64,000 bases of DNA from positions 39,435-103,434 of the forward strand of contig NZ_JBALBW010000007.1 of NCBI RefSeq assembly GCF_036919895.1, in the 5' to 3' direction. Made by a program: the position numbers and the translations under genes. Source of the stretch: Nostoc sp. (GTDB taxonomy: Bacteria; Cyanobacteriota; Cyanobacteriia; Cyanobacteriales; Nostocaceae). Within the stretch, counting starts at the first letter, position 1. Each line of letters begins with the position of its first letter. Below the pieces are notes generated by a model. It made no database searches. It saw only the letters and a program-made list of their open reading frames with translations, and was not told the DNA's origin. Shown one piece after another: positions 1 to 16,022 of the stretch.

Positions 1-1
1 A

Positions 2-361
2 ATGGATTTGACTCAAGGGTTAGCTCTGATATCAAGCCTAATCTTAGGAATTATCCCTTTTGCGATTCTCGGTCTTGCATTGGGGTACTTGCTAAACCCC
101 AAAAGTGCTGATTCTATTCTTAGCCTATCGCTAATTGTTATTCCTGTTGCTTGCGGTTCAATTCCACTTCCAGTACCGCAAATCGTCCAAGACTTAATTG
201 CATTCTCGCCGTTCTACCACTTTCGGCAGTTAATTCTATCGGCGGTTAACTTGAACCACGATAACCACCTAATTTTACATTTACTTTGGCTACTTTGGGC
301 TTGTGGTGCTTTTGGTTTATTGGCGGCTTGGTCTTATCAACGCGATCGCGCCGTACAATAG
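2..361 (+). CDS. ABC-2 type transporter permease, C-terminal part (gene probably starts left of the window)
   Basis: Hydrophobic helices and the P..(I)QDLIAFSPFYHF motif typical of ABC-2 permease C-termini. Confidence 0.75.
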   Translation: MDLTQGLALISSLILGIIPFAILGLALGYLLNPKSADSILSLSLIVIPVACGSIPLPVPQIVQDLIAFSPFYHFRQLILSAVNLNHDNHLILHLLWLLWACGAFGLLAAWSYQRDRAVQ

Positions 362-391
362 CTTCAACAGGATTATGTAGACTCTTATTTG

Positions 392-556
392 CTACGCATC
401 TGTTACTTCGGTTTCAAACTGCACTTTTCGGTACAAATGAGCGATGCCTTCGGCGGGCTTCGCCAACGCAATTTCTACATTCACCGATTCCAGCCGCAAT
501 ATATCGCCATGCGTGGAGAACATCCATTGCTGAGGGTCTATCAGGAAAAAGTTTCC
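392..556 (-). pseudogene. 3' remnant of a Uma2-family endonuclease gene
   Basis: Minus-strand frame reads FLIDPQQ..GDILRLESVNVEIA[LAKPAEG]IAHLYRKVQFETEVTDA*, like Uma2 C-termini; no start codon or N-terminal half. Confidence 0.55.
441..469. repeat. 21-nt small dispersed repeat (SDR5-like) inserted in a HIP1 site
   Basis: GCGAT|gccttcggcgggcttcgccaa|CGC; removing 446-466 restores GCGATCGC. Confidence 0.75.
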
Positions 557-652
557 AAGTGCTGACATTTGAATTAACTCTAATTTAAGTTAACTATACA
601 AGCATCTAAACCTCTAGCATTTTATCTGGTAGCTGGTTAATGCGATCGCCTC

Positions 653-1222
653 TCAGATTTTTCGCAATAATTCCCGAATAGCGATCGCACAATCAGGGAA
701 GGCTAAAGGTGAAATTGTCACATCCTCTGCAAATATGCTCTCACTGTGATAGCCGTCTGGACTGGGAAGACGATACATATACAACTTGCGTCCATTGACA
801 TCTAAAATCCAGTACTCAATAATCCCTGACATAGCATAAGCCATCGCTTTTACTTCGCGATCGTATTTAAGACTAGAATCAGCTATTTCAATCAGTAAAA
901 ATACTTCGGAAGCATTGGGATGGTGATCCTCATAATCTAATGGATTCAGCTTCACTACCGAAATATCTGGCTCTGGTTCCGAGTAATCGTCAAGTTGCAC
1001 TGGTGACTGGATTCTTAATAAAACTTTGTCACCCAAACGTTGACGTAATAACCTTTCTGTGCGGGTAATTGCTGATTCGTGAGCAGTTCCTTTTGCTGAC
1101 ATTCTGATGATTTGTCCCGCGATTAATTCTAAGCGTTCTTCAGGATGCAAAATTCCCGTTTCCGCCATTTGGTGATATTCTTGAACACTAATTAGGCGAA
1201 TATTGGTAAGCATAAGATTCAC
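653..1222 (-). CDS. Uma2 (DUF820) family endonuclease
   Basis: VQEYHQMAETGIL..RLELIAGQI, SEPEPD, LLIEIADSS, EYWILD motifs. Confidence 0.9.
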   Translation of the reverse strand: MNLMLTNIRLISVQEYHQMAETGILHPEERLELIAGQIIRMSAKGTAHESAITRTERLLRQRLGDKVLLRIQSPVQLDDYSEPEPDISVVKLNPLDYEDHHPNASEVFLLIEIADSSLKYDREVKAMAYAMSGIIEYWILDVNGRKLYMYRLPSPDGYHSESIFAEDVTISPLAFPDCAIAIRELLRKI

Positions 1223-1223
1223 G

Positions 1224-3221
1224 TTAACGTCCTAGCATTCTATCTCGCAGATGTTTAATGCGATCGCGCAATTTACCTGCCTCTTCAAATTCCAGTTTCT
1301 TCGCCGCCTCTTTCATCTGCGCTTCTAACAGAGTAATCAACCCTGGAATCTGTTCTAATGGCAGTTCATCTATATGTTCATCTACTACTTTCAAGTCTGT
1401 TGCATTTAACCGCCGAGATACATCTAAAAAAGACAAAATCGCATTACTTGATTTTTTTACAATCGATTGCGGTGTAATCCCATGCAGTCGATTATGTGCG
1501 GTTTGAATCCCACGCCGCCTGTCGGTTTCATCAATGGCTTTAATCATGCTACCTGTCATATTATCGGCATATAAAATCGCTTGTCCCTGGACGTGACGCG
1601 CGGCTCTACCAATAGTTTGAATTAAAGAGCGCTCGGTTCTCAAGAAACCTTCTTTATCTGCATCCATAATTGCTACTAAGGAAACTTCGGGTAAATCCAA
1701 ACCTTCCCGCAGCAAGTTCACGCCAACTAATACATCAAATTTCCCATCGCGCAAGTTCTGCAAAATCTCAATGCGCTCAATAGAAGTAATCTCGGAATGT
1801 AAATACCGTACCCTGATGCTGCGGTCTTGCAAATATTCGGTTAAATCTTCCGCCATGCGTTTGGTTAATGTGGTAATTAACACTCGTTCATGGCGATCGG
1901 CTCTATCTTTAATTTCGCCTAACAAATCATCAATTTGTCCTTCTGTGGGACGTACAGAAATTTCTGGATCAACCACTCCAGTTGGTCGAATTACTTGCTC
2001 AACTACATGGTCTTCAGAAACTTCTATTTCCCAATTTCCCGGAGTGGCGGAAACAAAAATACACTGATTCATCTTTTGCCAGAATTCCTCGGCTTTCAAA
2101 GGACGATTATCAGCAGCACTAGGAAGTCGAAATCCATGTTCAATTAAAACTTTTTTTCTCGCTTGATCGCCGTTATACATACCACGAATTTGTGGCACTG
2201 TCACGTGAGATTCATCGATAATTAATAGCCAATCTTTAGGAAAATAATCAATTAAACATTCTGGTGATTCTCCAGCTTGTCTTCCTGCTAAATGACGGGA
2301 ATAATTCTCAACGCCGTTGCAATAACCGACTTCGCGCAGCATTTCTAGGTCATAGCGTGTACGTTGATCTATGCGTTGCGCTTCTAATAGTTTCCCAGCT
2401 TGTTCTAAGTCTAGTTTTTGCTGTTTTAACTCGGCTGCAATGTCATTACAAGCTCCTTCTAAGCGTTCTTCTGGGGTGACAAAGTGACGCGCAGGGTAAA
2501 CATTCACCGCTTCCAAACTTTTGAGAATTTCCCCTGTCACCGGATCGATATAGCGAATCGCGTCAATTTCATCACCAAAGAATTCGACGCGAATAATTCG
2601 GTCTTCATAAGCTGGGCCAATTTCTAAGACATCACCCCGGACGCGAAATTTTCCTCGACCCATTTCTATGTCGTTGCGGCTATATTGAACATTTGCCAAA
2701 TCTCGTAAAATTTGGCGTTGGTTGACTTCCATACCTATCTGAAGAGGGATGGCAGCTTTCAGATATTCTGCTGGCATTCCTAAACCGTAGATGCAACTGA
2801 TGGAAGCAACGACAATGACATCACGACGTTCAAACAGCGATCGCGTCGCTGAATGCCGCAACATATCTATTTCATCATTAATTGCCGCTGTTTTTTCAAT
2901 ATAAGTATCGGTGACGGGAATATACGCTTCTGGCTGATAATAATCGTAGTAGCTGACGAAATACTCGACTGCGTTGTTGGGGAAGAAATCCCGCAACTCG
3001 TTACAAAGCTGTGCAGCCAGAGTTTTGTTATGCGCCAGTACTAAAGTAGGCTTGCCAATTTTCTCAATCACTGCTGCTACCGAAAATGTCTTACCAGTTC
3101 CAGTGGCTCCTAGTAAAGTTTGGTAACGATTGCCTGATTGGATACTAGCAGTTAATTGTGCGATCGCTTGTGGTTGATCGCCTGTCGGACTAAAGGGAGC
3201 TTGAAGACAAAATTCTGTCAT
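1224..3221 (-). CDS. uvrB: Excinuclease ABC subunit B
   Basis: GATGTGKT Walker [11 protein letters not shown] beta-hairpin, DESH, LLREGLD, C-terminal UVR motif; likely start [10 protein letters not shown] at 3221. Confidence 0.98.
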
Positions 3222-3474
3222 ACAGTTTTGCTGGAAATACCCTATCTCATGGTGACGATTCCGCCCTGTATTCATTCTAGCGGGACTATTAGACCAACTA
3301 AATAGTAATAATTATTTACAAAACTTAATAATTAAAATTTACTTATGTATCAGTTTTAAGGATTCTTATATCTAGATGAGGTTTTTTAAGGTTAAACTCT
3401 AGAGTATATGGAAAAAAATTTCATCTTTCCTTAATTATTGTAAAATTCAATTAACAAACCAGAGGTCTTCGTTT

Positions 3475-3936
3475 ATGACTATTAGCAACGCTGGCAAAGC
3501 AACCAGTTCTCGGCAAAAGCCTGCCAAGTCTCCAGGGGATAATAATACAGATGAAGTTGAAAATCAACAAGACCAGAGCTTGAATGCTGATAAAGTCGAG
3601 GAAGAACTGCCAGTGGGGGCTTCTGGGACACTTGCTATTTCTGGAATTCGTCCCATAGGCGCTAGTGATTTAGAAGTTGCTGAACACCTCTCAATTGCTG
3701 GGGTGCGTCCCATTAGCACCAGTACCTTGGAAGTAGTTGAAACCTATAACTCAATGGGTATTCGTCCAATTGGTGCTAATACATTCCAAGTCGTTGAAAG
3801 TATCAACCTCTCTGGGATTCGTCCAATTGGCTCAAGTTTATTGGTAATTGATGAAAGCTATTCCACCTTTGGTAATCGTCCCATAGCATCAAATGAAGTT
3901 GATAATTCTGAAAGCCTGATGGGTTTTCTAGATTAG
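3475..3936 (+). CDS. Hypothetical protein with five 19-aa G(I/V/N)RPI repeats
   Basis: 153-aa ORF: disordered N-terminus, then 5 tandem xGxRPI repeats. Confidence 0.75.
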   Translation: MTISNAGKATSSRQKPAKSPGDNNTDEVENQQDQSLNADKVEEELPVGASGTLAISGIRPIGASDLEVAEHLSIAGVRPISTSTLEVVETYNSMGIRPIGANTFQVVESINLSGIRPIGSSLLVIDESYSTFGNRPIASNEVDNSESLMGFLD

Positions 3937-4264
3937 ACAAAAAATATCCCCATAACTTTATTAACCCAGTTTTGTAGAGAAGCTGGGTTTTTAGTTAAAG
4001 AGTTAAAAGTATAAATTACAATATCTGCACTTTTTCTATGCCTTTTAGCATAGGTAACTAAACTACTATTACTTTATTTTGTATTCAGCCAACATCCAGA
4101 ACCCTTACTACAATTACCTTTCGTAATTATGAATCATTGAATATGTCTTGTGGTGGAAGGCTTTAGCAAAAACTTTAAGTTACTGTATAAGAGTAAATAA
4201 CAAAAAGATTTCAAAGTTAGTTTATAGCTTTAAAAGGAATCTTTCATTAAATCAGGAGTACAAA

Positions 4265-4447
4265 ATGAGCATTGAAGATCGCGCAAAGGCAGCTGCTAAA
4301 AATGTTGAAGGTAAAGCCCAAGAAGCATTAGGCAATATCACTGGAGATCCAGAAGATAAAGCTAAAGGTAAAGCAAAGCAAGCTGAAAGCGAAGTACGTA
4401 ATGGAATTGAAGACGTCAAAGATAATGTCAAAAAGAACATTGACTAA
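4265..4447 (+). CDS. csbD: CsbD-family stress protein
   Basis: MSIEDRAKAAAKNVEGKAQEALGNITGDPEDKAKGKAKQAE; GGAG upstream of ATG 4265. Confidence 0.9.
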   Translation: MSIEDRAKAAAKNVEGKAQEALGNITGDPEDKAKGKAKQAESEVRNGIEDVKDNVKKNID

Positions 4448-4604
4448 TAATTCATGATTTTTTTGCAGAAACTCTAGGAATACAAATGGGGTGGATTCCA
4501 TTTTTGCAGAGAAATGTGAGTTGTTTGATAACCAAGCTGAATTCTTGTGGTATTCCCTGGGTAAGGGTTAGAGAATAAAAGATCAGCTTGATTGACAGAA
4601 TTTT

Positions 4605-4635
4605 TGTAGAGACGTAGATTAATCGCGTCTCTACA
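4605..4635. repeat. REP-like palindrome GTAGAGACG...CGTCTCTAC, degenerate copy
   Basis: tgtagagacgtagattaatcgcgtctctaca; same family at 34126 and 63231. Confidence 0.8.
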
Positions 4636-5079
4636 ATTACCAAATTGCCAAAAAAGGTTTAAATTCAAATATTATATATAACTATCATTCATTATTTTGC
4701 CAAGCCAGTTTTAAAGGTTTATATTAACTAATAACTTTAGTGATTATTTGGAATTTATTTAGCTATAACTTGAAAATTAGAATTTAAAAACTCAATCAAT
4801 TAGTTTGAGCAGATTTAAAATAATAGCTTTTAAATTTATAATGATAAACATCTAGACCAAAAGTTGGGACTTTCTACACATAACCCGAACTACATGACTG
4901 TTGATGATGTTAGTAAACTAGGGTAATTTCTAATACGAACGTAGCTGCGGCAACTTTTCCCAATCTGAAGATTATTCCAAATATCGTCAAATTGTAGTAA
5001 TATAGCACGGGCATTAACTATCTTCAGCTACATCTGATTGTTAGCGCTCAGAAATTTACAAATCGATGAGAGTATTACC

Positions 5080-5718
5080 GTGAGCCTAACTCTTTATTTT
5101 CTCCGTCACGGACAGACAGAATGCAGTCGCAATAACTCCTTTTGCGGTTCCATAGACTCAGAACTTACTCCAGAAGGCTTGGAGATGGCAAAGGCTTTTG
5201 CAGACGCATATAGTTCTATGGATTGGACAGCAATATTTTGTAGTCCTATGCGGCGAACTGTATTGACAGCAAAACCCTTATCTGAAGCAATAGGGATGGA
5301 ACCACAACTCAGAGATGGTTTGAAGGAAATCAACTATGGTAAGTGGGAAGGAAAAACCCCAGAAGTAATTAGCCGTGAATATCACGATGATTATATTCGC
5401 TGGTCAGCAGATCCGGCTTGGAATGGCCCAACTGGCGGAGAAATGGCAGTTACAATTGCTTCTCGCGCCTTGCAGGTAATTGAAGAAATCAAGCAAAATT
5501 ACACTAGTGGCAATGTGTTAGTGGTTTCCCACAAAGCAACCATCAGAATTATTCTGTCTAGTTTATTGGGGATTGATGTGGGACGTTTCCGTTTTCGTTT
5601 GGGATGCCCTGTGGCTTCGGTCAGTATTGTAGAATTTTCCTCACATGGCCCATTGGTAAAGGTTTTGGCAGACCGTAGTCATTTGGATGACCGATTGCGA
5701 AATTTACCGGGGACGTGA
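5080..5718 (+). CDS. Histidine phosphatase (phosphoglycerate mutase-like) family protein
   Basis: LYFLRHGQT, SPMRRT, LKEINYGKWEG, VVSHKATIR motifs; likely GTG start at 5080. Confidence 0.9.
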   Translation: MSLTLYFLRHGQTECSRNNSFCGSIDSELTPEGLEMAKAFADAYSSMDWTAIFCSPMRRTVLTAKPLSEAIGMEPQLRDGLKEINYGKWEGKTPEVISREYHDDYIRWSADPAWNGPTGGEMAVTIASRALQVIEEIKQNYTSGNVLVVSHKATIRIILSSLLGIDVGRFRFRLGCPVASVSIVEFSSHGPLVKVLADRSHLDDRLRNLPGT

Positions 5719-5752
5719 GGGGAGACGCGAAAAATCTTTGTCTGTATAGGAG

Positions 5753-6211
5753 TTAGGAATTATTATTTTTACCTTGTTCTGCTTCGCTATCTGGTGCAGT
5801 GTATTTGCAGAAAACATTTATCCCAATTTTTAGAATATATAATACGACAATTGTTGCGATCGCACCATCAATCGGAATTCCATGTGCAGCAGCAACAATC
5901 ACCAGTGAACCAATGATACTATTGAGCAGAGAAGAACTACCAGGGTTATTGGTGTATTCTTTAATTTTGCCCCGTAAACCATCATCACCACAGATTTCGG
6001 CGCTAATTTCATTGAGGGTAAGTTGCAAGAGAGATTTTTTGCCCCGACTATAATCTGTTTTGCCGACTTTCTCTTGCCAAAGTGCATCAAAACTGGCTTC
6101 TAGATTGCCGTTGTGTTGTTGCAGGGTAGTAAGCGCTTGTTGCGCTGGGGTGTCGTTTACAAGAAGTTGCTGAAATTCTTGGATTTCGACAGGGGTTAAT
6201 TGGGGATTCAT
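5753..6211 (-). CDS. Hypothetical protein with C-terminal hydrophobic helical hairpin
   Basis: 152-aa ORF with two hydrophobic segments (SLLNSIIGSLVIVAAA, AIATIVVLYILKIGINVFC). Confidence 0.75.
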   Translation of the reverse strand: MNPQLTPVEIQEFQQLLVNDTPAQQALTTLQQHNGNLEASFDALWQEKVGKTDYSRGKKSLLQLTLNEISAEICGDDGLRGKIKEYTNNPGSSSLLNSIIGSLVIVAAAHGIPIDGAIATIVVLYILKIGINVFCKYTAPDSEAEQGKNNNS

Positions 6212-6222
6212 ATATATTTGAC

Positions 6223-6419
6223 TTAATTATTTATGATGTTGGTATCTAACAAGATTTTCACAGATTATGTTTCTCCTTTAAAGCTTCCCATCTGGCTTGG
6301 TCTGGGTCAAAATCAGAAGGCGTGGGTTGTGTTTTTTCAAACCAGCCTTGCAAAGCTTTGATTTTTGTTTGTCTCTTTGGCTTTTCTGGCTGTGACTCAA
6401 AGGATGGAACTGGCTGCAA
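6223..6419 (-). pseudogene. Toxin-antitoxin scar: antitoxin-like C-terminus plus the first 12 codons of a PIN/VapC toxin
   Basis: ...DFDPDQARWEALKEKHNL* overlaps (GTGA) with VKILLDTNIINN*; xxLLDTN is the PIN-domain N-terminal motif. Confidence 0.6.
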
Positions 6420-6469
6420 AATAGTACCTGAATCAACGATCGCAGTTAGCAGTTATAAGTGAATATCTT

Positions 6470-6637
6470 ATCGTCACCAACATTACAACATTAAGTCTTA
6501 ACGCTATAACTTTAAGGCTTAATGCTATAACTTTAAGGCTTAACCTTATAACTTTAAGGCTTAACGCTATAACCTTAAGGCTTAACGTTACAACATTAAT
6601 CACCAGCATTATAAGATTAAGGCTTAACGTTACAACT
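6470..6637. repeat. 21-bp tandem repeat array, 8 units (6 close to consensus ttaaggcttaacgctataact, 2 divergent)
   Basis: Units start at 6470, 6491, 6512, 6533, 6554, 6575, 6596, 6617. Confidence 0.9.
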
Positions 6638-6729
6638 TTTTGACAAAAGCTTATGCGATCGCTCTTTAGGGTAGTGTAATCTGTGCGATCGCTAACAACA
6701 CTTAAGCAAAACTTATGGTGCTGCGAGAA

Positions 6730-6754
6730 CCCCGACTTCTTCAAAAAGTCGGGG
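6730..6754. terminator. GC-rich hairpin (REP-like or terminator) just downstream of the CHAT gene
   Basis: ccccgactt-cttcaaa-aagtcgggg, 9-bp stem. Confidence 0.6.
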
Positions 6755-6761
6755 ATCTGAA

Positions 6762-9700
6762 TCAACCTAGCTTATCCCGCGCTGCCCAAATTGCCTCGCG
6801 CACCTCTCTGGCGCACTCTTCACCCGTCGCCTCACGCCAAATAAGTTGAAACTGACTTTCGCCTAACTGCTGGAGCATACGGGCTAAAGCATTGATACGA
6901 TAACCAATCAAATCTTGATTATGCTCTAAGTCAATGGCTAAAACACGAATGTAAATTTGCAAAGCCTCAGTATAATTTTCTTGAGCTTCTAAAACCCTTC
7001 CCCACTTACCCAATGTTGCTGAAGCCTTACGCCAATCACGGAATTGTTCAAAAACTTTATAGGTTTTTTGATAATAATCAACAGCCACATCAAACAGCCG
7101 TTGCTCTTCGGCTACCCTGCCCAGTTGGTGATAGACAGTAGCAGCACTGTACAAATCCCCGGCATCTTCTTTTATCTTCAGCGCCTTTTTATAGTAATCA
7201 ACAGCCACATCAAACAGCCGTTGCTCTTGGGCTACCCTGCCCAGGTGGTGATAGACACTAGCAGCACTGTACAAATCCCCGGCATCTTCATATATCTTCA
7301 GTGCCTTGTTGTAGTAATCAACAGCCACATCAAACTGCCGTTGCTCTTCGGCTACGCTGCCCAGTTGGTGATAGTCACTAGCAGCACTGTACAAATACCC
7401 GGCATCTTCTTTTATCTTCAGCGCCTTGTTGTAGTAATCAACAGCCACATCAAACTGCCGTTGCTCTTCGGCTACTATGCCCAGTTGGTGATATTGATTA
7501 GCAGCACTGTACAAATCCCCGGCATCTTCAAATATCTTCAGCGCCTTTTTGTAGTAATCAACAGCCACATCAAACTGCCGTTGCTCTTTGGCTACCGTGC
7601 CCAGTTGGTGATAGTCACTAGCAGCACTGTAAAAATCCCCGGCATCTTCAAATATCTTCAGCGCCTTTTTATAGTAATCAACAGCCACATCAAACTGCCG
7701 TTGCCCTTCGGCTACGATGCCCAGTTGGTGATAAGCAACAGCAATTTTGTCATTCACTGAGGAGTCATTTACAGCTATCAGTTCATCCAGAATTTCTTGA
7801 TGGACTTTCCTTGCCCCTTCCAAGTCAGCACTTTGAGCGGCTTCATTGGCATCTGTACCCCGCAGATACATCCAGAAATCTAGAGCATCTTTACCCTTTG
7901 CTTTGGCATCTGTCAAATGAATACCAATATGCTTCAGCGTCCGTTGTCGCAGTGACTTAAATTCGGGTTTGCGTCCTATGCGATCATACACTTCTCCCAA
8001 GGCTTGCAGAATCCATTGTGCATAAGCCCATTCCTGCTGATGTTCAGCAAGGCGCAGATTTTGCAACAGATTTGGTTCTTCCACCCGAAGCACAAAAGTT
8101 GCTAGTTCTGCATTGCTAATGAGTTTCTTACGGTAGTTGTCAGCCAACGCTGCGTAGAAAATCAGCAACTTTTTTTCGAGTTCGTTAATCACCTCCTGGG
8201 AAGTAATTGTGTTTAACTGCTGGCGCAAATACCAAGGTAGTGCTGGGTGAATTTTGTAGATACTCTCACCCAACAAATATTCCACAATACCTGTGGTGGC
8301 GGCTTCATTGAGAATCTGCAACCAATCTGGTTTTTGCAAGTTCTCCCCAAACACCGCTTGATATGCTTGTCCAAATTCATTATCAGGATTTTTTGAAAAA
8401 CCATGCAGCCAATCTGCATCAACCCGTTCCGAAAACAACGCCAAAAATGGTAAATGCTGGCGTGTTCGTTCTGACAACTTAGCAAAAGAATAATCCAACG
8501 ACACAGTAAGAGATTTTTCTCTCCCTTCTTCCTCTTGTCCCCTAAAAGTATCCAACCCCCGCCGCAGCGCCTCAATTAACTGCACAGGTGTCTGCATCTT
8601 TAAATGCGGCAACACCACCCGCAAGGACAACGGATGTCCCCCCAACAATTTCAACAATTCCAAATACTCTGCTGGTAGGTTCTTTCTCTCCACGCCCACC
8701 GTTTGCAAAATCTTCGCGGCTAACTCTTGGGCATCCGCTTCAGACAACCCCCGCAAGTTGATTAAACTATACCCACAATCCAACCAAGGTTCTTCGCGGC
8801 GACTGGTAATTAATACCCAAGATTTACCACCCCGCAATTCCTTAAGAAACCGCTTCAGCTTGTTTCTTTCTTCCCCACTCAATAATGGTTCATTCCCCGT
8901 CGGGAAACCGTTGACAGGTTCAAAGTTATCCCAAATCAACAAGCAAGGATTAGTTTGCAGATATTGCTGCACCACATCTTCTTGCTTATCGGGCATCATT
9001 TGCGAAAATCTCTCACCTCCTAACGCCCTACCAATTTGGTTAATTACCTGACTCAACCCCGCACCCTGTTCAAAGGAGGTGAAAAACATACCGCCTGTAC
9101 GTCCTTGGGTATCATCCAACCATCGGGCGAAACCTGCGGCTAACTCAGTCTTCCCAACGCCGCCCATTCCCTGTACTAACACAACATGATTTTGCCGAAA
9201 TGCTCTCTCTAAACGCAAAATCTCATAATCCCGCCCAATAAAACCGAATGCACTTTCATCAGGTAAACCCACAGCTTTGCTGCTTTCTGGAGTATTGTCT
9301 GTTTGCGCCATCAAATCGGCAAAACTGGGTGCTATCTTTTTAGGAACAAAAGGCGTATAGGGTTCCTGCTGATACAACACTGGCACAAGCCAATCTTGTA
9401 AAGGTAAATTTCCTTTGGGACTGGGGCGCATTTTGTCAATAGACATGGACTTACGCCCTGCTGCAACTGCTGTGGCGATACACTCTCCCCTGACTAATTC
9501 TCCATACAACCGCCCAATAAAGTGTTCTGCACCTTTGGCGTAAACTGAATACGCCATCGCTACCACACCCTTAGCCCCCAATTTCACCAACTGTCCCGCC
9601 ACAGAAGAAAAAGCTTCTTCGCCTACTTGTCCAGACTTGCAAGCATTCAGCACAAAAATAGGCACACGGCAATCTGTTAAATATTGGGCGATTTCTCTAG

Positions 9701-10454
9701 CACTGACAGCTTGCTCATTTCCCTGTTCATCCTCAAAGACTAAAACTCCCTGAGTCTCGCTGTCAAAATTCCCATGTCCATCAAAATGGACGATATGATA
9801 AAAACCCTTATGCGCTTGCAGTTCTGCTTCAAATGCTTTCAAGCTAGGGGGACGCAATACCTTAAGATTGACTCGCTGTCGTATCGGTTGCAGTGCCGCC
9901 AGCAGGGGACGGGCAATGGTTTTAAACCCAACATCTTGCTCATCGTCAGGACGGGCAATAACTAGTAAAATATTCAGTTGGTCATCGGGCATTTCTGGCA
10001 ATGGTGCTTTTACGCCCTGACTGCTGAGACTGCGATACATCCCCGCCAGTGAAGGTGCAAGAAATTGATAATCGGGGGAATATAGCAACTCCCAAGGCAA
10101 GTTCAGCACTTCGGCGTTATCGGAAATGATGCCCAGTTCACATTTATCAAGCCCTTCCCGTGTGGCTTCTTGAAAAAACTCTCTTCCTTTTTCTGTGCTG
10201 CGAAATACTAGCTCAAATAAATGTTGTCCCCAGTGCTGTAATTTTTGCTCGATTTTTGCAGCGTTATCAGGAAATATACCGTAAGGAAATTTTAAATAAT
10301 CTTCTAAATACCAGCGCAATTCAGCCGCGTTTTCTTCATCGAAGGGTTGCTGGAAGCCAACTTCTGACGCAAAGCGAGGATTTTCATATCCGCGTTGCCA
10401 AGAAAGTTGGATTTTGTCGTTTTGATGCGTAATCCGCAACCAATTCTGCGCCAT
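6762..10454 (-). CDS. CHAT (caspase-like) protease - STAND/NB-ARC-like NTPase - TPR protein
   Basis: CHAT dyad HIVHFDGHG and LNACKSG; Walker A GMGGVGKT; Walker B LLIWDNFE; LITSR and GHPLSL motifs; C-terminal 40-aa TPRs; ATG at 10454 (TTG at 10469 possible). Confidence 0.92.
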   Translation of the reverse strand: MAQNWLRITHQNDKIQLSWQRGYENPRFASEVGFQQPFDEENAAELRWYLEDYLKFPYGIFPDNAAKIEQKLQHWGQHLFELVFRSTEKGREFFQEATREGLDKCELGIISDNAEVLNLPWELLYSPDYQFLAPSLAGMYRSLSSQGVKAPLPEMPDDQLNILLVIARPDDEQDVGFKTIARPLLAALQPIRQRVNLKVLRPPSLKAFEAELQAHKGFYHIVHFDGHGNFDSETQGVLVFEDEQGNEQAVSAREIAQYLTDCRVPIFVLNACKSGQVGEEAFSSVAGQLVKLGAKGVVAMAYSVYAKGAEHFIGRLYGELVRGECIATAVAAGRKSMSIDKMRPSPKGNLPLQDWLVPVLYQQEPYTPFVPKKIAPSFADLMAQTDNTPESSKAVGLPDESAFGFIGRDYEILRLERAFRQNHVVLVQGMGGVGKTELAAGFARWLDDTQGRTGGMFFTSFEQGAGLSQVINQIGRALGGERFSQMMPDKQEDVVQQYLQTNPCLLIWDNFEPVNGFPTGNEPLLSGEERNKLKRFLKELRGGKSWVLITSRREEPWLDCGYSLINLRGLSEADAQELAAKILQTVGVERKNLPAEYLELLKLLGGHPLSLRVVLPHLKMQTPVQLIEALRRGLDTFRGQEEEGREKSLTVSLDYSFAKLSERTRQHLPFLALFSERVDADWLHGFSKNPDNEFGQAYQAVFGENLQKPDWLQILNEAATTGIVEYLLGESIYKIHPALPWYLRQQLNTITSQEVINELEKKLLIFYAALADNYRKKLISNAELATFVLRVEEPNLLQNLRLAEHQQEWAYAQWILQALGEVYDRIGRKPEFKSLRQRTLKHIGIHLTDAKAKGKDALDFWMYLRGTDANEAAQSADLEGARKVHQEILDELIAVNDSSVNDKIAVAYHQLGIVAEGQRQFDVAVDYYKKALKIFEDAGDFYSAASDYHQLGTVAKEQRQFDVAVDYYKKALKIFEDAGDLYSAANQYHQLGIVAEEQRQFDVAVDYYNKALKIKEDAGYLYSAASDYHQLGSVAEEQRQFDVAVDYYNKALKIYEDAGDLYSAASVYHHLGRVAQEQRLFDVAVDYYKKALKIKEDAGDLYSAATVYHQLGRVAEEQRLFDVAVDYYQKTYKVFEQFRDWRKASATLGKWGRVLEAQENYTEALQIYIRVLAIDLEHNQDLIGYRINALARMLQQLGESQFQLIWREATGEECAREVREAIWAARDKLG
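7071..7731. repeat. Six near-identical 120-bp TPR-coding repeats
   Basis: The block taatcaacagccacatcaaa recurs exactly every 120 bp in six units (starting 7071, 7191, 7311, 7431, 7551, 7671). Confidence 0.95.
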
Positions 10455-10558
10455 AGCTATTGCCAACACTAGTTAGATGCTACCTTATCTTAGTAATTCA
10501 CGCAGAGGTTAGCTGATTACGCAAATGAAATCAGCTAATTCTATTGGGTTAGAGTTTT

Positions 10559-10653
10559 ATAGGACTTACGCACGAGTTACGGAATAACGAACCACAGAGG
10601 CACAGAGGACGCGGAGAAATCAGAGTTTGAGAAATAATTTGCGTAAGTCCTAT
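10559..10653. mobile_element. Short MITE-like element with 14-bp terminal inverted repeats
   Basis: ataggacttacgca ... tgcgtaagtcctat, perfect inverted ends, non-coding interior. Confidence 0.7.
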
Positions 10654-10708
10654 TTTAATTCAGTAGAGATACAGGGATAATGTACTCAAATTCTCAGTGA
10701 ATTATTTT

Positions 10709-11848
10709 ATGCTGCCAGTTGTTGAGACTATTCCTTTACGTCAAATGGCTTCGGGCGATCGCTTATACTTACAAATATACAAATTTATCGGCGCTCAACC
10801 TGGTAAAAAGGTATACATTCAATCAAATCTGCACGGTGCAGAAATCGCTGGTAATGCCGTCATTCACCAGCTAATTGAGTTTTTATTAACAATAAATGAT
10901 ACAGATTTAACTGGAGAAATTTGGCTAGTTCCCGTTTGTAATCCGATGGGGACGAATGAACGCGCTCATCATTTTTCCCCTGGGCGATATTGCGTTTATG
11001 AAGCCAAAGACTGGAATCGCATATTTTGGGATTACGAAAAAGAAGCTGATAATTTAGTCGCTTTTACTAAATCTCAACTTCATATCGGACTAGAGGTTGT
11101 TCGACAAAATTATCTAACTATAATTAAGCAAAAATTTGCGAAAATTTTAGAAAAGATTAATTCTTCTAGTGGTGTTCCTTACACTGAGCTTTTTGCCTAC
11201 AAGCTACAAAATCTGAGCTTAGATGCAGACTACTTAATTGACTTACATAGTTCTACAAATCAAGCTTTAGACTACGTTTATTACTTCCGAAATCGAGAAG
11301 ACAGTGTAAAATACTTTTTGCTCGATTTTGGAATCTTGCTGAATAAATATGATGGTGATGCTTTTGATGAAGCTTTTATCAAACCTTGGTTAGCACTGGA
11401 AGCTTGTTTTCAAGAGTTTGGTAGAGATATCAAGTTTGATGTGGAAGCTTGGACACTGGAATTAGGCTCAGGAATGCAAATGAACCCTGATTCAGTCGCT
11501 AAAGGTGTAAGGGGCGTAAAAAACTATTTAGCGCAAAAAGGTGTACTGCAAATTCCTGATTTATCGGATGACACAAAAACTTATGAGATGACTTTCGCAT
11601 CTAGCAGCAGCCGGAAAAAATATTATGCGATCGCAGGTGGGATGATTCAATCCAGAATAGCATTAGGTAGTAGGTTTAAAGCTGGAGAAAAATTGTATCA
11701 AATTCTCAGTTTTAATAAAGAAGGTAACTTACCTAGTGTCATTGATGTCTGCGCTCAACAAGATGGATTGGTTTATGATGTCGCAACAAATCAAGCTGTA
11801 AATGAAGGCGAGTTTGTATTGGGGATTGTTTTCTGGACTTTAGTCTAA
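10709..11848 (+). CDS. Succinylglutamate desuccinylase/aspartoacylase (M14-like) family protein
   Basis: NLHGAEIAG, DWNRIF, IDLHSS, TLELG motifs; C-terminal biotinyl-like barrel. Confidence 0.88.
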   Translation: MLPVVETIPLRQMASGDRLYLQIYKFIGAQPGKKVYIQSNLHGAEIAGNAVIHQLIEFLLTINDTDLTGEIWLVPVCNPMGTNERAHHFSPGRYCVYEAKDWNRIFWDYEKEADNLVAFTKSQLHIGLEVVRQNYLTIIKQKFAKILEKINSSSGVPYTELFAYKLQNLSLDADYLIDLHSSTNQALDYVYYFRNREDSVKYFLLDFGILLNKYDGDAFDEAFIKPWLALEACFQEFGRDIKFDVEAWTLELGSGMQMNPDSVAKGVRGVKNYLAQKGVLQIPDLSDDTKTYEMTFASSSSRKKYYAIAGGMIQSRIALGSRFKAGEKLYQILSFNKEGNLPSVIDVCAQQDGLVYDVATNQAVNEGEFVLGIVFWTLV

Positions 11849-11855
11849 AGTCCAG
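11833..11855. repeat. Inverted repeat with 11-bp arms at a gene junction
   Basis: ctggactttag-t-ctaaagtccag. Confidence 0.8.
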
Positions 11856-12087
11856 TTGAGAACGACAGCGCTATATTGAGCGATCGCCTCTGTAATTGGT
11901 ACACTTAATACTTGGCGATTTTGCCATGTCACCATGCGATCGTATTTCTCCTCGGCAATTTAACCGCCGCCACACCAAAAGCTGTTGTAACTAATCTATC
12001 TATTGGCGAAGCTGTTCCACCCCGTTGGATGTGTCCCAAAACGGTGACTCGCGTTTCTACACCAATGTGCTGAATAATTTCATGTTG
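11840..12087 (-). pseudogene. pfkA: 6-phosphofructokinase 3' relic, frameshifted and 5'-deleted
   Basis: HIGVETRVTVLGHIQRGGTASPIDRLVTTAFGVAAV, frameshift near 11960, then AEEKYDRMVTWQNRQVLSVPITEAIAQY. Confidence 0.88.
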
Positions 12088-12248
12088 GTTTTGAATCTAA
12101 AAACAAAACAAAGTTATCTCAGGTGTAAAATATAAGTGTAGAGCCAGTAGTAGATTAAACCTCGGCAAAAGCAATACCTAAAAATGCCAGGGTAATTTTA
12201 TGCCTGTTTTGTGTCTAAGAAAAAACCAAGTTATCCCAGCTATAAAAT

Positions 12249-13223
12249 ATGAGGGTGGAGCCAAAGGTGACTAGTATTGAAAATTACAACTTCTCTTTTC
12301 CAGGAGAAGTCACAATCCCACAGGCTCCTCCTGAATTTAAATCAGGTTTTATCGGCATTGTTGGTCGTCCAAATGTCGGTAAATCTACTTTGATGAATCA
12401 GTTAGTAGGACAAAAAATTGCCATTACATCACCCATAGCACAAACCACACGTAACCGTTTGCGGGGCATTTTCACTACACCAGAGGCGCAGTTAATTTTT
12501 GTAGATACGCCAGGAATTCATAAGCCCCATCATCAATTGGGGGAAGTCTTGGTGCAAAATGCCAAAATTGCCATTGAATCGGTAGATGTAATACTGTTTG
12601 TGGTAGATGGAGCCGTGGCTTGTGGATCGGGCGATCGCTACATTGCTGAATTGCTCAGTCGCAGCAAAACCCCAGTGATTTTGGGCGTGAACAAAATCGA
12701 CCAACAACCATCCGATTCTCAGTTTCTAGATGATAGTTACGCGCAGATGGCCCAGTCCCATGAATGGGAAATCGTGAAATTTTCTGCCAAGACAAGTGCA
12801 GGATTACCGCAACTTCAAGAATTATTAATTGAACATTTAGAAATTGGGCCCTTATACTACCCGCCAGATTTGGTAACTGACCAACCAGAACGCTTTATCA
12901 TGGGTGAATTAATCCGAGAACAAATTTTATTATTGACTCGTGAAGAAGTACCCCATTCAGTTGCGATCGCTATTGACGTAGTAGAAGAAGCTCCCACGAT
13001 TACCCGTATACTTGCTACCATCAACGTCGAGCGCGATTCCCAAAAAGGCATACTTATTGGCAAAGGCGGAGCAATGCTCAAAGCCATTGGCAGCGAAGCC
13101 CGCGAACAAATCCAAAAGTTAATCGCTGGTAAAGTTTACTTAGAATTATTTGTCAAAGTTCAGCCAAAATGGAGACAATCGCGGATTAGTCTAGCAGAGT
13201 TAGGCTATCGCGTCGAAGAATAA
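12249..13223 (+). CDS. era: GTPase Era
   Basis: GRPNVGKS, QTTR, DTPG, NKID; KH domain with ILIGKGG. Confidence 0.97.
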   Translation: MRVEPKVTSIENYNFSFPGEVTIPQAPPEFKSGFIGIVGRPNVGKSTLMNQLVGQKIAITSPIAQTTRNRLRGIFTTPEAQLIFVDTPGIHKPHHQLGEVLVQNAKIAIESVDVILFVVDGAVACGSGDRYIAELLSRSKTPVILGVNKIDQQPSDSQFLDDSYAQMAQSHEWEIVKFSAKTSAGLPQLQELLIEHLEIGPLYYPPDLVTDQPERFIMGELIREQILLLTREEVPHSVAIAIDVVEEAPTITRILATINVERDSQKGILIGKGGAMLKAIGSEAREQIQKLIAGKVYLELFVKVQPKWRQSRISLAELGYRVEE

Positions 13224-13317
13224 AATAAATTTGTCATTAGTCATTGGTTATTGGCAGGCAAAAAAACCAAAGATTAATGACAAATAACAAATAACAAATA
13301 ACTCTTAATAAATAAAA

Positions 13318-13995
13318 ATGTCTTTAGATATTCGCTATCCCTTAAATTTACCTGTCAATGCTCCGCCGTTGCGCGTGTTAATTGTCGAAGACGATCCGAT
13401 GATGCAATTGGGATTAGAGCAATCATTAATGGCTCATCCTCAGTTAGAGATAGTTGGACAAGCCGAAGATGGTTATTTGGGAGTCCAAGCAGCGCTGCAA
13501 CTGAAGCCCGACTTAGTAGTTATGGATATAGGGTTGCCACGATTGGATGGGATTGCCGCGACACAGCAAATTAAGGCGGCGTTACCAGCAACTCATGTAG
13601 TAATGCTGACATCTCATCAAACAGAGACAGAAATTATTGCGGCACTATCTAGCGGTGCAGATGCGTATTGTATTAAAGGTGCAAGTGTAGAACGATTGTT
13701 AAGTGCGATCGCAGCCGCAGTTGATGGTGCAGCCTATCTCGATCCTCAAATTGCGCGGCGAGTAATTGATAATCTCAAACCGCCAGCACCCACCAGCAAC
13801 AACGCCAACTTATCTGGGCGCGAATTAGAAGTTTTGAAACTCATGGTAGACGGGTTGAGCAACCCAGAGATTGCCGAAAAACTCTATCTCAGTCCCAACA
13901 CCATCAAAACTCACGTCCGGGGGATTATGAATAAATTAGCAGTAGACGATCGCGTGCAAGCAGCCGTTGTGGCACTGCGTTCTGGGTTGGTTTAG
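13318..13995 (+). CDS. NarL/LuxR-family response regulator
   Basis: REC domain (IVEDD, VVMDIGLP, K) plus LuxR HTH (LSGRELEVL..SNPEIAEKLYLSPNTIKTH). Confidence 0.93.
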   Translation: MSLDIRYPLNLPVNAPPLRVLIVEDDPMMQLGLEQSLMAHPQLEIVGQAEDGYLGVQAALQLKPDLVVMDIGLPRLDGIAATQQIKAALPATHVVMLTSHQTETEIIAALSSGADAYCIKGASVERLLSAIAAAVDGAAYLDPQIARRVIDNLKPPAPTSNNANLSGRELEVLKLMVDGLSNPEIAEKLYLSPNTIKTHVRGIMNKLAVDDRVQAAVVALRSGLV

Positions 13996-14076
13996 AAAAT
14001 AAATGCAGCAAAATACGCGATCGCTCTTTGACGTAGACAATATGACTTGAGTCAATATTTTAATCCCATTTATAAG

Positions 14077-14102
14077 TAAAGGCGTACAAAAGTACGCCTT
14101 TA
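14077..14102. terminator. Probable bidirectional intrinsic terminator
   Basis: taaaggcgtac-aaaa-gtacgccttta between convergent ORFs. Confidence 0.7.
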
Positions 14103-14156
14103 TCAGAGATTTATTTGTTGCCGAGATGTTTGAAAAATAGTCTACCTCAATGCATT

Positions 14157-14324
14157 TTAGTTAAAAGAGTTTGAGAATTGATTAGGGTCTACATTATCAG
14201 GAAATAATAATATTTCCTTGCCTTCTAAATTAGCCTTATGGTAAAGCAAAATAGCCTTTTCCAAAAAACAATATTTAATCGGAACCCATCTGTCGCTATA
14301 AAAGTAGACAGTTACTCGGCTCAT
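14157..14324 (-). CDS. Small hypothetical protein
   Basis: 55-aa ORF MSRVTVYFYSDRWVPIKYC...; start uncertain (longer frame to 14396). Confidence 0.45.
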   Translation of the reverse strand: MSRVTVYFYSDRWVPIKYCFLEKAILLYHKANLEGKEILLFPDNVDPNQFSNSFN

Positions 14325-14724
14325 TGCATACTCTTTCAACGGCAGTGGAAGAGACCAGGACGAATCCACAGTTTGAACGTCAACTGTTGAGTTCATGCTT
14401 TGAACCTCAGTTACTAAGTATATTTACTCTCACTCATCCAAGTGAGTTTGAGTAACTATCACAAGTAATAAGCTGATATAGCTTTAAGTTAGATATTTAG
14501 TTAAAAGTTCAGCAGTCAACGACTTTTTAGTTGGAATTGAGTCTTAGTAGTTAGTAAGGAATTTTTGGGTAAAGTTTGACAGGTTGTCTTTTGACGCAAC
14601 TATTCTTTTAAAATTATCGTTCTTAAATATCTGGTGGAAAATAGCATCAAAAATATTTTTTAATTTTCCTTTAATTGCCTTTCCCCAGTTAATCTGCTCT
14701 ACTCCACTTACTCTAAAAAACTCT

Positions 14725-15165
14725 ATGTACCACTTTACCCTAGAGAAGAATTTAGGATGGCTATTATTAATTTCGGTTTTGATTGCCACACCAGTTAATG
14801 CCCACACCGAAAAGGTATCAGAAGATGTGGGCGGGATGCTGCATATTGAACCCCAGGACAATCCTCAAGCTGGCAAAACCGCTCATGCTTGGATTATTCT
14901 CACCCATAGAGGCGGGCGAATAATTCCCCTGACACAATGTAACTGTCAGTTGGCTGTCTATCCTCAACCTCACGCCAAAACTGATACCCCATTGCTGAAG
15001 CCAAGTTTACATAGCGTATCAACCAAACAATATAAAAGCATTCCTGGAGCCGACATCGTATTTCCCAAAGTAGGAGCTTATGATTTGGAGTTAAGCGGTA
15101 CTCCAAAACCTGGAGCTAATTTCAAGCCCTTTCTGTTGTCTTACCCAGTCACTGTTGGCTCATAA
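14725..15165 (+). CDS. Secreted/periplasmic hypothetical protein
   Basis: Signal peptide ending ATPVNA followed by HTEK; beta-rich mature part; likely ATG at 14725. Confidence 0.75.
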   Translation: MYHFTLEKNLGWLLLISVLIATPVNAHTEKVSEDVGGMLHIEPQDNPQAGKTAHAWIILTHRGGRIIPLTQCNCQLAVYPQPHAKTDTPLLKPSLHSVSTKQYKSIPGADIVFPKVGAYDLELSGTPKPGANFKPFLLSYPVTVGS

Positions 15166-15548
15166 AAGCTGAAGTGTGTCGAATTTTATGCTGTAGTAAG
15201 ATCCGGTAGGGTTCAGAAATCGTAGTGCGATCGCTACCGTTTTAGAGGCGATCGCACTTCTGACTCTATTTGCATATAAATTACCTTAATCCCTCTACTG
15301 CCAAGAATATTTCTACGCTTCGCCCCATACCCCCACCCCTAGACATAATCACCTCAATATATTGGTGAATAAATGGAGACAAGGGAGAAATAAATAAGCA
15401 ATGCCCAATGCCCAAAATTTAAAATCCTGCCAAACGATGTAAAGGTTTCAAACTCAGGGACGATGAAGAATTAGCAATTAAATTGACAAAATCACACTAT
15501 AAAGAGTGATATTAAGCGATAGATAGCGCTTGTAAAGGACTAACGGGC

Positions 15549-16022
15549 ATGATTAAATCTTGGATGGTGATTGGGGGCGTGGCTTTCTTGGTTGCTTTAG
15601 CCGCTAACGTGATTACACCTAGCGATCGCCAATGGTTCAAGCGCTTACAACGACCGAGATGGCTAACTTTTGAGGGGGCAATTCCCATTATCTGGATTGT
15701 AATATTTATTTGCGGTGCTTGGTCGGCTTATATTGTCTGGGAAAAAGATCCAGGAAGCAACTCAACCTGGTTAATCATGGGTTTATACTTGCTGTTAGAA
15801 ATTGTGACCATTGCCTATACGCCTGTAATGTTTCGGCTTCGCAGTCTGAAAGTGGGCACAATTCTCGGTGGCACAGGTTTTATAATTAGTGCTTTATTGA
15901 TACTTGCAGTTTTAGGTTTTTCTGGTTGGGCAGCATTGCTATTAGTTCCTTATTTGCTCTGGAGTCCCATCGGTACTTATACCACTTGGCAGATGGCTAG
16001 TCTCAATCCTCAAGATGTCTAA
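15549..16022 (+). CDS. tspO: TspO/MBR tryptophan-rich sensory protein
   Basis: WFKRLQRPRWLT, five TM helices, LLVPYLLWS. Confidence 0.9.
   Translation: MIKSWMVIGGVAFLVALAANVITPSDRQWFKRLQRPRWLTFEGAIPIIWIVIFICGAWSAYIVWEKDPGSNSTWLIMGLYLLLEIVTIAYTPVMFRLRSLKVGTILGGTGFIISALLILAVLGFSGWAALLLVPYLLWSPIGTYTTWQMASLNPQDV

Follow-up and report, generated by a model that had tools for sequence, protein, structure and literature searches.

What a protease-armed receptor of a filamentous cyanobacterium could act upon, once switched on, is the question raised by a single open reading frame (ORF) of Nostoc sp. The frame lies in a stretch of 64,000 nucleotides (contig NZ_JBALBW010000007.1, positions 39,435 to 103,434), hereafter the window. 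An earlier note, made from the letters of that stretch, had described its product as a NOD-like receptor (NLR) joining a CHAT protease, a STAND NTPase and a tetratricopeptide repeat (TPR) array, and had called its substrate unknown. The conserved gene downstream of the receptor, at 5753-6211, had been missed, and it now supplies a concrete candidate for that substrate; a VapBC-like relic between the two genes had been missed as well. On balance, we lean towards viewing the locus as one instance of an NLR-like conflict module made up of two cyanobacterial genes, in which a protease activated on ligand binding would license a death effector, most plausibly the small protein. The features on which this reading is built are as follows.

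6762..10454, minus strand: gene for the CHAT / NB-ARC-type STAND NTPase / TPR protein (P0001), 1230 residues, start ATG at 10454, TGA stop at 6764-6762
9429..10148, minus strand: CHAT (caspase-fold) protease domain, residues 103-342, Pfam PF12770
8235..9245, minus strand: STAND NTPase module, residues ~404-740, with Walker A, Walker B, sensor-1, GxP and MHD-like motifs
6867..8234, minus strand: helical-repeat sensor region, residues ~741-1196, containing six near-identical 40-residue TPR units
5753..6211, minus strand: gene for the 152-residue partner, on the same strand as the NLR and downstream of it

The receptor protein

The elements from which the NLR had first been recognized are all present: the histidine of FDGHG, the cysteine of LNAC, GMGGVGKT, WDNFE and the TPR array stand intact in one 1230-residue frame, whose minus-strand orientation the note had left unstated. 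A GTG at 10469, upstream of the ATG, offers an alternative start that would yield 1235 residues, but the ATG at 10454 appears to be the conserved start because orthologues begin MAxNWLRITHQ. The CHAT domain is matched by Pfam at residues 103-342 with 88 bits (cut-off 24, E 1e-24), and holds the predicted catalytic residues His227, in HFDGHG (codon 9774-9776), and Cys272, in VLNACKS (codon 9639-9641). The NB-ARC model matches residues 423-614 (26.4 bits versus a cut-off of 23.5), while NACHT, at 17.9 bits, stays below its cut-off of 26.7, and nSTAND1 likewise falls short. Walker A, GMGGVGKT, occupies residues 429-436 (9147-9170) and Walker B, LLIWDNFE, residues 505-512 (8919-8942); sensor-1-like (LITSRRE, residues 548-554), GxP-like (GGHPLSL, residues 605-611) and MHD-like (KIHPAL, residues 734-739) motifs follow, with roles assigned by analogy. 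TPR_12 is found in seven stretches over approximately residues 850-1180 (E 6e-54).

Two alignments, of 33 and 30 homologues at 61-92% identity, show no variation at any of the named catalytic and nucleotide-binding residues. Together with the Pfam matches to CHAT, NB-ARC and TPR_12, this bears out the earlier description of an NLR/Avs-like layout. That a 1230-codon frame with such domain matches arose by chance is, on the sequence, far beyond expectation, and the predicted product is a CHAT-STAND-TPR protein in one polypeptide, with an NB-ARC-type switch and intact sites. The Walker B motif has one peculiarity, in that an asparagine follows the aspartate in place of the usual second acidic residue, with a glutamate two positions on, and WDNFE is invariant in all homologues; this variant may mean slow or altered NTP hydrolysis. 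In an AlphaFold2 (AF2) model of residues 1-1200, the repeat arm forms regular helical hairpins (pLDDT ~90) and the NTPase is mediocre. The best Foldseek match of the model in the Protein Data Bank (PDB) is the archaeal STAND-TPR protein PH0952 (6mfv, E 1.5e-14), which was also matched by sequence, and the fold of the repeat arm matches LGN/Pins-type TPR with a TM-score of ~0.8. The sequence search of the PDB returned no solved CHAT structure for the NLR.

The six 40-residue TPR units fill residues 900-1139 (7038-7757), and at the DNA level the program TRF reads them as a 120-bp tandem repeat of 5.6 copies with 92% matches. Homologue lengths step by about 40 residues, corresponding to ~2-13 units each. 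Across 335 units from 120 homologues, twelve positions are nearly fixed (A6, Y9, L12, G13, A16, Q19, F22, A25, Y28, Y29, K31 and I35), and entropy peaks at positions 7, 8, 14, 36, 30 and 4. Among the six units of the window gene, the ratio of nonsynonymous to synonymous differences (pN/pS) is 2.69 at the hypervariable codons versus 0.49 at the framework codons, a contrast to be read in the light of small numbers and of codon classes that were defined on data including these same six units. We infer from this pattern that the TPR array is a ligand-binding groove under diversifying selection, carried on a scaffold in concerted evolution. Near-identical tandem repeats with few variable positions and a shifting number of units are likewise known from fungal NLRs (Dyrka et al., 2014, PMC4986451). 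A 238-residue frame on the plus strand, antisense to the repeats at 7044-7760, is a shadow ORF held open by their regularity and no gene.

Taken alone, the NLR is ordinary, one more member of a long-predicted class. The search returned more than 1900 homologues, the best of them from Nostoc spp. (78-91% identity) and the next, at 60-75%, from Microcoleus, Tychonema, Lyngbya, Calothrix and Tolypothrix; their database names go no further than 'tetratricopeptide repeat protein' or 'CHAT domain-containing protein'. In the genome that the window comes from (6.34 Mb in 140 contigs) there are 17-18 CHAT ORFs and one distant paralogue with the same three-part layout. The order caspase/CHAT, AP-ATPase, TPR/WD40 has long been described in cyanobacteria and actinobacteria (Koonin & Aravind, 2002, and Asplund-Samuelsson, 2012, via Dyrka et al., 2020, 10.1101/2020.01.06.895854; Kaur et al., 2020), and caspase-headed Apaf-1-like proteins of cyanobacteria are noted by the 2026 STAND census (PMC13581612). 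In architecture and taxonomic setting the window gene is identical to this 'all-in-one' cyanobacterial and actinobacterial NLR-like class, of which it is a plain, and like the rest a functionally little-tested, member. The portions of those surveys consulted differ from our results in making no mention of a family of 145-152-residue partners or of an intercalated VapBC-like pair.

None of the named defence families (Avs, bNACHT, gasdermin, EACC1, HetF) fits the NLR as judged from its sequence. Avs, bNACHT and every other PADLOC system were ruled out for lack of a match to a family hidden Markov model. The Avs families of the 2026 census (PMC13581612) share the plan of an N-terminal effector, a STAND NTPase and a C-terminal TPR-like sensor, but their effectors are nucleases, SIR2 or TIR where the window protein has CHAT, and their TPR domains are large and bilobed where it has a short, regular array of 40-residue units. 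Avs proteins oligomerise once a conserved phage protein has bound, and it is this scheme that we carry over to the window gene. HetF was rejected because the NLR reaches 27.9 of the 1200 bits that NCBIfam NF045509 requires and occurs patchily among species of the genus, and the EACC1-associated caspases because NF047832 scores 21.6 bits against a cut-off of 140.

A small gene linked to the receptor

In all 13 NLR loci the small gene lies downstream on the same strand, and 5 of these loci are non-syntenic (Nostoc PCC 7107, Microcoleus vaginatus, Calothrix NIES-2100 and two other genera). Related genomes carry 11-50 CHAT genes each in a scan of 19, too crowded for an adjacency test, and adjacency was therefore assessed locus by locus with tblastn instead of by a genome-wide CHAT scan. 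A search with the small-protein profile gave 304 relatives among 185,579 species genomes; 80 were retained, all from cyanobacteria or uncultured metagenome bins, and 69 loci could be assessed. A STAND-type neighbour is present in 54 of the 69, comprising a full NLR orthologue upstream in 32, an NLR relic in 9, and a convergent CHAT-NACHT/NB-ARC-TPR paralogue, 27-33% identical, in another 9, besides four loci described below. Because there are only 11-50 CHAT genes per genome, chance adjacency should be rare, by a rough estimate a few percent at most.

The linkage extends to mobile DNA. Only two plasmid matches were found, and both are paired with CHAT-STAND-TPR genes. On the conjugative plasmid pANSO36B of Nostoc cf. 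commune SO-36 (locus L123, 1390-7408), the small gene begins 85 bp after an interrupted NLR that is ~61-68% identical to ours, has been annotated in two parts ('CHAT domain' protein and 'TPR repeat' protein), and carries an interruption of ~1.9 kb in its NTPase region. On a mobilisable plasmid of Calothrix, 27 bp separate the small gene from a paralogue in convergent orientation. No phage matches to the small protein were found. Nostoc punctiforme ATCC 29133 carries an orthologous pair of NLR (ACC79257.1) and small gene (ACC79252.1). Overall, we consider it likely that the small protein is a functional partner of the NLR.

In the remaining four of these 54 loci, from Anabaena and Nostoc (L102, 9563-12560, and likewise L106, L114 and L116), a divergent subgroup of the small protein is accompanied by a gene for a 447-residue KAP/STAND-like P-loop NTPase (GHRGSGKS) that overlaps by ~40 bp with a TPR gene of 564-644 codons. 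These loci may represent a split or frameshifted effector-less NLR.

The chromosomal setting speaks to the age of the pair. The NLR is flanked by genes for UvrB, Uma2, CsbD, a histidine phosphatase, an AstE/AspA-like protein, Era and a LuxR-type response regulator, and the earlier note had placed it as inserted between housekeeping genes. This wording misleads, since the same site is occupied in at least 10 other species and deletion relics are found elsewhere. Ten other species of the genus share the order UvrB, unknown, CsbD, histidine phosphatase, small gene, NLR, AstE-like, (Pfk), Era, LuxR in the same orientation. A full-length NLR orthologue occurs in 10 of 36 other same-genus species genomes and fragments in two more. 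The orthologue is broken by TGA and TAG stops in genome G007 and reduced to two fragments at the syntenic site in G021 (residues 216-269, at 98% identity, and 1174-1229). At that site G011 and G029 retain nothing but the final 35 codons of the small gene, G036 has a disrupted copy of it, and G032 and G005 show a clean deletion. In three Nostoc genomes (L033, 7044-10880; L065, 3209-6121; L067, 3581-7303), the NLR slot is held, on the opposite strand, by a gene for a TPS-domain protein (two-partner-secretion exoprotein) of 970-1278 residues. Since the same site is used in at least ten species and genomes without the gene retain deletion relics, the NLR and small gene are ancestral at the Nostoc site and were repeatedly lost. 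A recent horizontal insertion was rejected; the GC content is not unusual (45-47%, with flanks at 38-43%), and synteny favours ancestry.

Ancestral presence with repeated loss, pseudogenes and replacement is a pattern of conflict genes, unlike that of housekeeping genes. The earlier note had held that a patchy context together with degenerate catalytic sites would speak against a defence role. The distribution is indeed patchy, but every intact copy keeps its catalytic residues unchanged, and a patchy record with pseudogenes is typical of conflict genes. Two further observations concern the surroundings. Between the AstE-like gene and era, on the minus strand at 11846-12081, lies a pfk relic of two frameshift-offset pieces that correspond to residues 273-352 of the 365-residue N. 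punctiforme Pfk (88-89% identity); relatives have an intact pfk there. In Nostoc sp. PCC 7107 (L026, 747-4576), genes for a PycTM-domain protein (189 residues) and a 1067-residue WD40 protein lie ~5.4 kb upstream of the NLR orthologue, and may be another conflict module.

Three minor features occupy the space between the NLR and the small gene in the window.

6223..6425, minus strand: VapBC-like toxin-antitoxin relic, made up of antitoxin residues 32-96 (6261-6425) and the first 12 PIN codons (6223-6261, VKILLDTNIINN and stop), found by tblastn with the intact N. punctiforme genes and by direct reading
6500..6636, no strand: intergenic array of a 21-bp tandem repeat, 4.8 copies, with nested 42- and 63-bp periods, standing in place of the 5' part of the antitoxin gene
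6730..6754, minus strand: hairpin CCCCGACTT...AAGTCGGGG, directly after the NLR stop codon, read from the sequence

The relic, whose toxin is of the PIN_3 type, ends 11 bp before the ATG of the small gene. The repeat array gives rise to a spurious 110-residue ORF (6433-6765) and contains the best promoter-like site (6608-6635, minus strand), though promoter and terminator scans gave no excess of sites over shuffled sequence. A structured RNA in the intergenic region was also considered and dismissed: the single Rfam match, to a miRNA family on the 21-bp repeats, is far under the gathering score and was taken as chance. The hairpin is a possible terminator or dispersed-repeat element, judging from its sequence.

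The partner protein and known protease-effector systems

The small protein is predicted to be all-alpha. An AF2 model built on a 29-sequence alignment (pLDDT 85, pTM 0.81) divides it into a head of three UBA/CUE-like helices (residues 7-48, 6068-6193), a variable, basic linker of low model confidence (residues 49-60), two helices flanking an invariant E72/C74/G75 motif, and a hydrophobic helical hairpin (residues 94-135, 5807-5932). The hairpin consists of helices at ~93-109 and 116-138 with an invariant P113/D115 turn between them, and the two hydrophobic segments have Kyte-Doolittle means of 1.75 and 2.2. The CUE/UBA-like similarity of the head (first 48 residues) is sub-threshold and appears in 13-14 of 29 family members.

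The protein has no match in Pfam, NCBIfam or PADLOC, and a PDB sequence-profile search was empty. DUF2335, the NCBI name on one cluster member, was not reproduced by Pfam at E values up to 5. A fold assignment by Foldseek against the PDB also failed (best E 0.88, TM-score <0.3), and the Bcl-2-family, globin and diphtheria-toxin matches are insignificant echoes. A profile search of 1.84 billion representative proteins gave 129 clusters, all of short proteins (the longest 226 residues), and no long multidomain protein. By these sequence comparisons the partner family is uncatalogued and absent from curated families.

How might such a protein be coupled to the NLR? Profile comparison detected no domain or segment common to the two (hhalign probability 0.8%), and coupling of the homotypic, Death/EAD or amyloid type is accordingly unsupported. 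As in fungal NLRs and bacterial Bell/BASS pairs, an NLR of a filamentous organism is here partnered by a small, helical, putative death protein. Identity with a Bell/BASS amyloid pair was rejected, given that the small protein and the NLR have no common motif and that the NLR has its own protease.

A nearer comparison is provided by the EACC1-caspase pairs ('System 4' of Kaur et al., 2020, PMC7159879). In one case, the caspase-Avs12 fusion KrAvs12 senses a phage tail connector protein and cuts EACC1 once, releasing a toxic, pore-forming C-terminal fragment that permeabilises liposomes (Evans et al., 2025, bioRxiv 10.1101/2025.11.14.688446); the same study lists ten families of protease-effector modules. 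Like the window pair, EACC1 systems place a caspase-fold cysteine protease, joined in one chain to a STAND NTPase and a helical-repeat sensor, beside a small, non-enzymatic protein of ~115-150 residues with a membrane-active C-terminal part. The expected order of events (trigger, oligomerisation, single cleavage, pore) is the same, and both are enriched in multicellular bacteria. They differ in that the small gene lies 3' of the protease here and 5' in EACC1 systems, in the CHAT domain, which falls well short of the EACC1-associated model NF047832 (21.6 bits against 140), and in the small protein itself, EACC1 being alpha+beta with one transmembrane helix, whereas the window partner combines a predicted all-alpha fold with a UBA-like head and a hairpin of two hydrophobic helices. 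The window's own genome also encodes a caspase that does pass the 'EACC1-associated type' cut-off (L119, 67-2563, contig C21), preceded by a 127-residue gene, the presumptive EACC1, that has no Pfam model match; comparison of the window partner with this presumptive EACC1 gave an hhalign probability of 0.25%. EACC1 identity thus fails on gene order, caspase subtype and partner homology.

Bacterial gasdermins are cleaved by CHAT/C14 proteases that are often fused to NACHT, TPR, LRR or WD40 (Johnson et al., 10.1101/2021.06.07.447441). Their operons resemble the window pair in setting a CHAT protease, often fused to an NLR sensor, beside a latent membrane-permeabilising protein that is activated by cleavage, and differ in that the window partner is a 152-residue, all-helical protein with no Gasdermin Pfam match and no significant fold match. 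No gasdermin gene was found within positions 1-16000 of the window, and a gasdermin system was rejected for lack of a gasdermin-fold neighbour at the locus. CATRA/CATASP systems likewise have a TPR-bearing protease of the caspase fold, accompanied by a small helical protein and by a membrane component. By gene content alone, the window pair differs from them in its STAND module, in having no third gene, and in carrying the hydrophobic hairpin within the small protein itself; no gene for a third, ~400-residue membrane protein lies beside the pair, and neither the NLR nor the partner matches a CATRA-named NCBIfam model. By analogy, then, the pair appears to resemble the EACC1-caspase-Avs12 and gasdermin-CHAT modules in function while being a member of neither. 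The antiphage or cell-death switch proposed in the earlier note fared in a similar way: a conflict or cell-death role is the best-supported reading of the sequence, but no test run placed the protein with Avs, Craspase or gasdermin systems, which serve as analogies only.

A proposed mechanism and its rivals

The NLR is probably a conflict sensor-protease, acting in antiviral abortive infection or another form of regulated cell death. By analogy with STAND/Avs proteins and Apaf-1, an ADP-bound switch and the TPR arm would hold the protease domains apart at rest. A foreign or danger ligand bound in the TPR groove would trigger nucleotide exchange and oligomerisation, bringing the CHAT domains together and activating them by proximity. 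More weakly, we propose that the active protease would cut the 152-residue protein, probably within its variable basic linker (residues 49-60) or else at the EICGDDGLRGK turn, which is conserved. Such a cut would remove the UBA-like head and allow the C-terminal hydrophobic hairpin to insert in and permeabilise the membrane, so that the cell is killed or arrested. That the small protein is a cleaved membrane effector of this kind is suggested by the analogous systems, and we advance it as tentative.

In most Nostocales relatives, a VapB-like/PIN pair could be a second licensed effector. In the window genome this pair is a dead relic, and the working unit there would consequently be the NLR and the small protein. 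A more ambitious version of the proposal, which we regard as rather unlikely in its entirety, would see in the 145-152-residue partner a family of death effectors, new and restricted to cyanobacteria, that are all-alpha, are licensed by a protease and disrupt membranes; each would have a UBA-like cap for autoinhibition, a linker open to cleavage and a hydrophobic hairpin. The module would then stand beside the ten families of Evans et al. (2025); in Nostocales, one NLR would command it together with the VapBC-like pair as a composite effector operon.

Several observations weigh against a module of receptor and cleaved effector. First, the linkage is incomplete: 15 of the 69 small-gene loci have no STAND neighbour, and 4 of the 69 have the KAP/STAND-like NTPase and TPR protein, with no protease domain. 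Because of these orphan small genes and protease-free loci, cleavage of the partner cannot be universal. The small-gene frame also persists beside the TPS-domain gene in the three Nostoc genomes where the latter holds the NLR slot, and in the window itself the two genes are separated by 550 bp, without translational coupling. Second, the arrangement in most Nostocales is NLR, a gap of 0.3-1.3 kb often filled with insertion sequence elements, a 96-residue putative antitoxin, a PIN_3 toxin overlapping it by 4 bp, and the small gene 25 bp further on. The small gene is thus packed most closely against the VapBC-like pair, and the antitoxin-PIN-small trio occurs without an NLR in 5 loci. Third, the case for a pore former rests on hydrophobicity and analogy, there being no significant structural relative. 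Of the structure prediction that the earlier note had proposed, the good repeat arm and the STAND-TPR fold match stand, but the CHAT domain is modelled too poorly to judge autoinhibition or the geometry of the active site (pLDDT ~40-65, and <50 around residues 226-234 and 263-284). Finally, the PADLOC check that it had likewise proposed found no known defence system: the NLR matched no Avs or bNACHT model, its matches being TPR, a weak BovA and a weak SAVED_CHAT over the CHAT part, and the neighbourhood is no recognisable defence island and holds no known PADLOC system.

Several of these points would be accounted for if the NLR acted alone, its activated CHAT domain cutting essential host or invader proteins broadly, with the small protein as a regulator, membrane tether, guardee or inhibitor. 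The NLR already carries an effector in its own chain, as in the 'all-in-one' NLRs of bacteria and fungi, and the caspase-like proteases of type IV Thoeris cut broadly. Small genes beside NTPase and TPR proteins that lack a protease would fit, as would the 550 bp between NLR and small gene, and the UBA/CUE-like head suggests a protein-binding module. However, so strict a conservation of the small gene, downstream and on the same strand over unrelated contexts and plasmids, requires a role connected with the NLR; the characterised protease modules typically use a membrane-hairpin protein as their effector; and NLR and small protein have no shared domain for homotypic docking. We judge action of the NLR alone to be unlikely.

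Alternatively, the small protein could belong to the VapBC-like operon, as a third component or an alternative toxin, and its proximity to the NLR could be synteny inherited in a variable hotspot. The distance of 25 bp from the PIN stop to the start of the small gene recurs in ~25 loci from several Nostocales genera, and beside the five trios without an NLR some loci have the antitoxin and the small gene only. Yet NLR and small gene occur without the toxin-antitoxin pair in Oscillatoriales (Microcoleus, Tychonema), Calothrix, Nostoc PCC 7107, LEGE 06077, several Nostoc and both plasmids, and the divergent small-protein subgroup is paired with divergent STAND proteins, including a CHAT-STAND paralogue, and no PIN. 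A STAND neighbour without the VapBC-like pair was counted in 21 loci, the pair without an NLR in 5, and in the window lineage the pair has decayed while NLR and small gene are intact. On these grounds we take the NLR and the small gene as the general unit, and membership of the small protein in the toxin-antitoxin operon as improbable. The VapBC-like pair would then be a Nostocales-specific intercalated module, and that it acts in addiction, or as a further effector licensed when the antitoxin is cleaved, is speculation of similarly low probability. In a separate arrangement (L088, L089 and L090), an antitoxin-like gene begins 25 bp after the NLR end, with no PIN gene; the antitoxin homologue can therefore be coupled to the NLR instead of to a toxin.

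The module of NLR and small effector could also serve an end other than antiviral defence, namely kin or allorecognition, or developmental cell death in filaments of the fungal het or HetF-like kind. The NLR family is confined to filamentous, multicellular cyanobacteria, NLR-like architectures track the multicellular habit, the internally conserved, hypervariable repeats resemble those of fungal NLRs, and HetF is itself a CHAT protease. The score of the HetF model is a small fraction of its cut-off, however. Only about one third of congeneric species carry the NLR, and pseudogenes are frequent, which argues against a core developmental role, and the related caspase-STAND fusion KrAvs12, when tested, answers to a phage protein. 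We therefore hold this possibility to be very improbable. Least credible of all is that the NLR is a decaying or non-functional remnant with a fortuitously intact frame: the nearby PIN, antitoxin and pfk are relics and several orthologues elsewhere are broken, but the 1230-codon frame keeps every catalytic and switch residue invariant, is ~90% identical to intact orthologues, and shows purifying selection at its framework codons (pN/pS 0.49).

What is new here is a testable substrate or effector candidate for a caspase-armed bacterial NLR, one that accompanies its NLR in different genera, in different gene orders and on plasmids. Should the protease indeed cut the partner to yield a helical, membrane-active fragment, the pair would be another independent invention of the logic by which a caspase cuts a latent pore former, and the system would be available in the genetically tractable Nostoc punctiforme. 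It would also offer a natural case in which the ligand-binding repeats of an NLR evolve by unit turnover and focused hypervariability, as they do in fungal NLRs.

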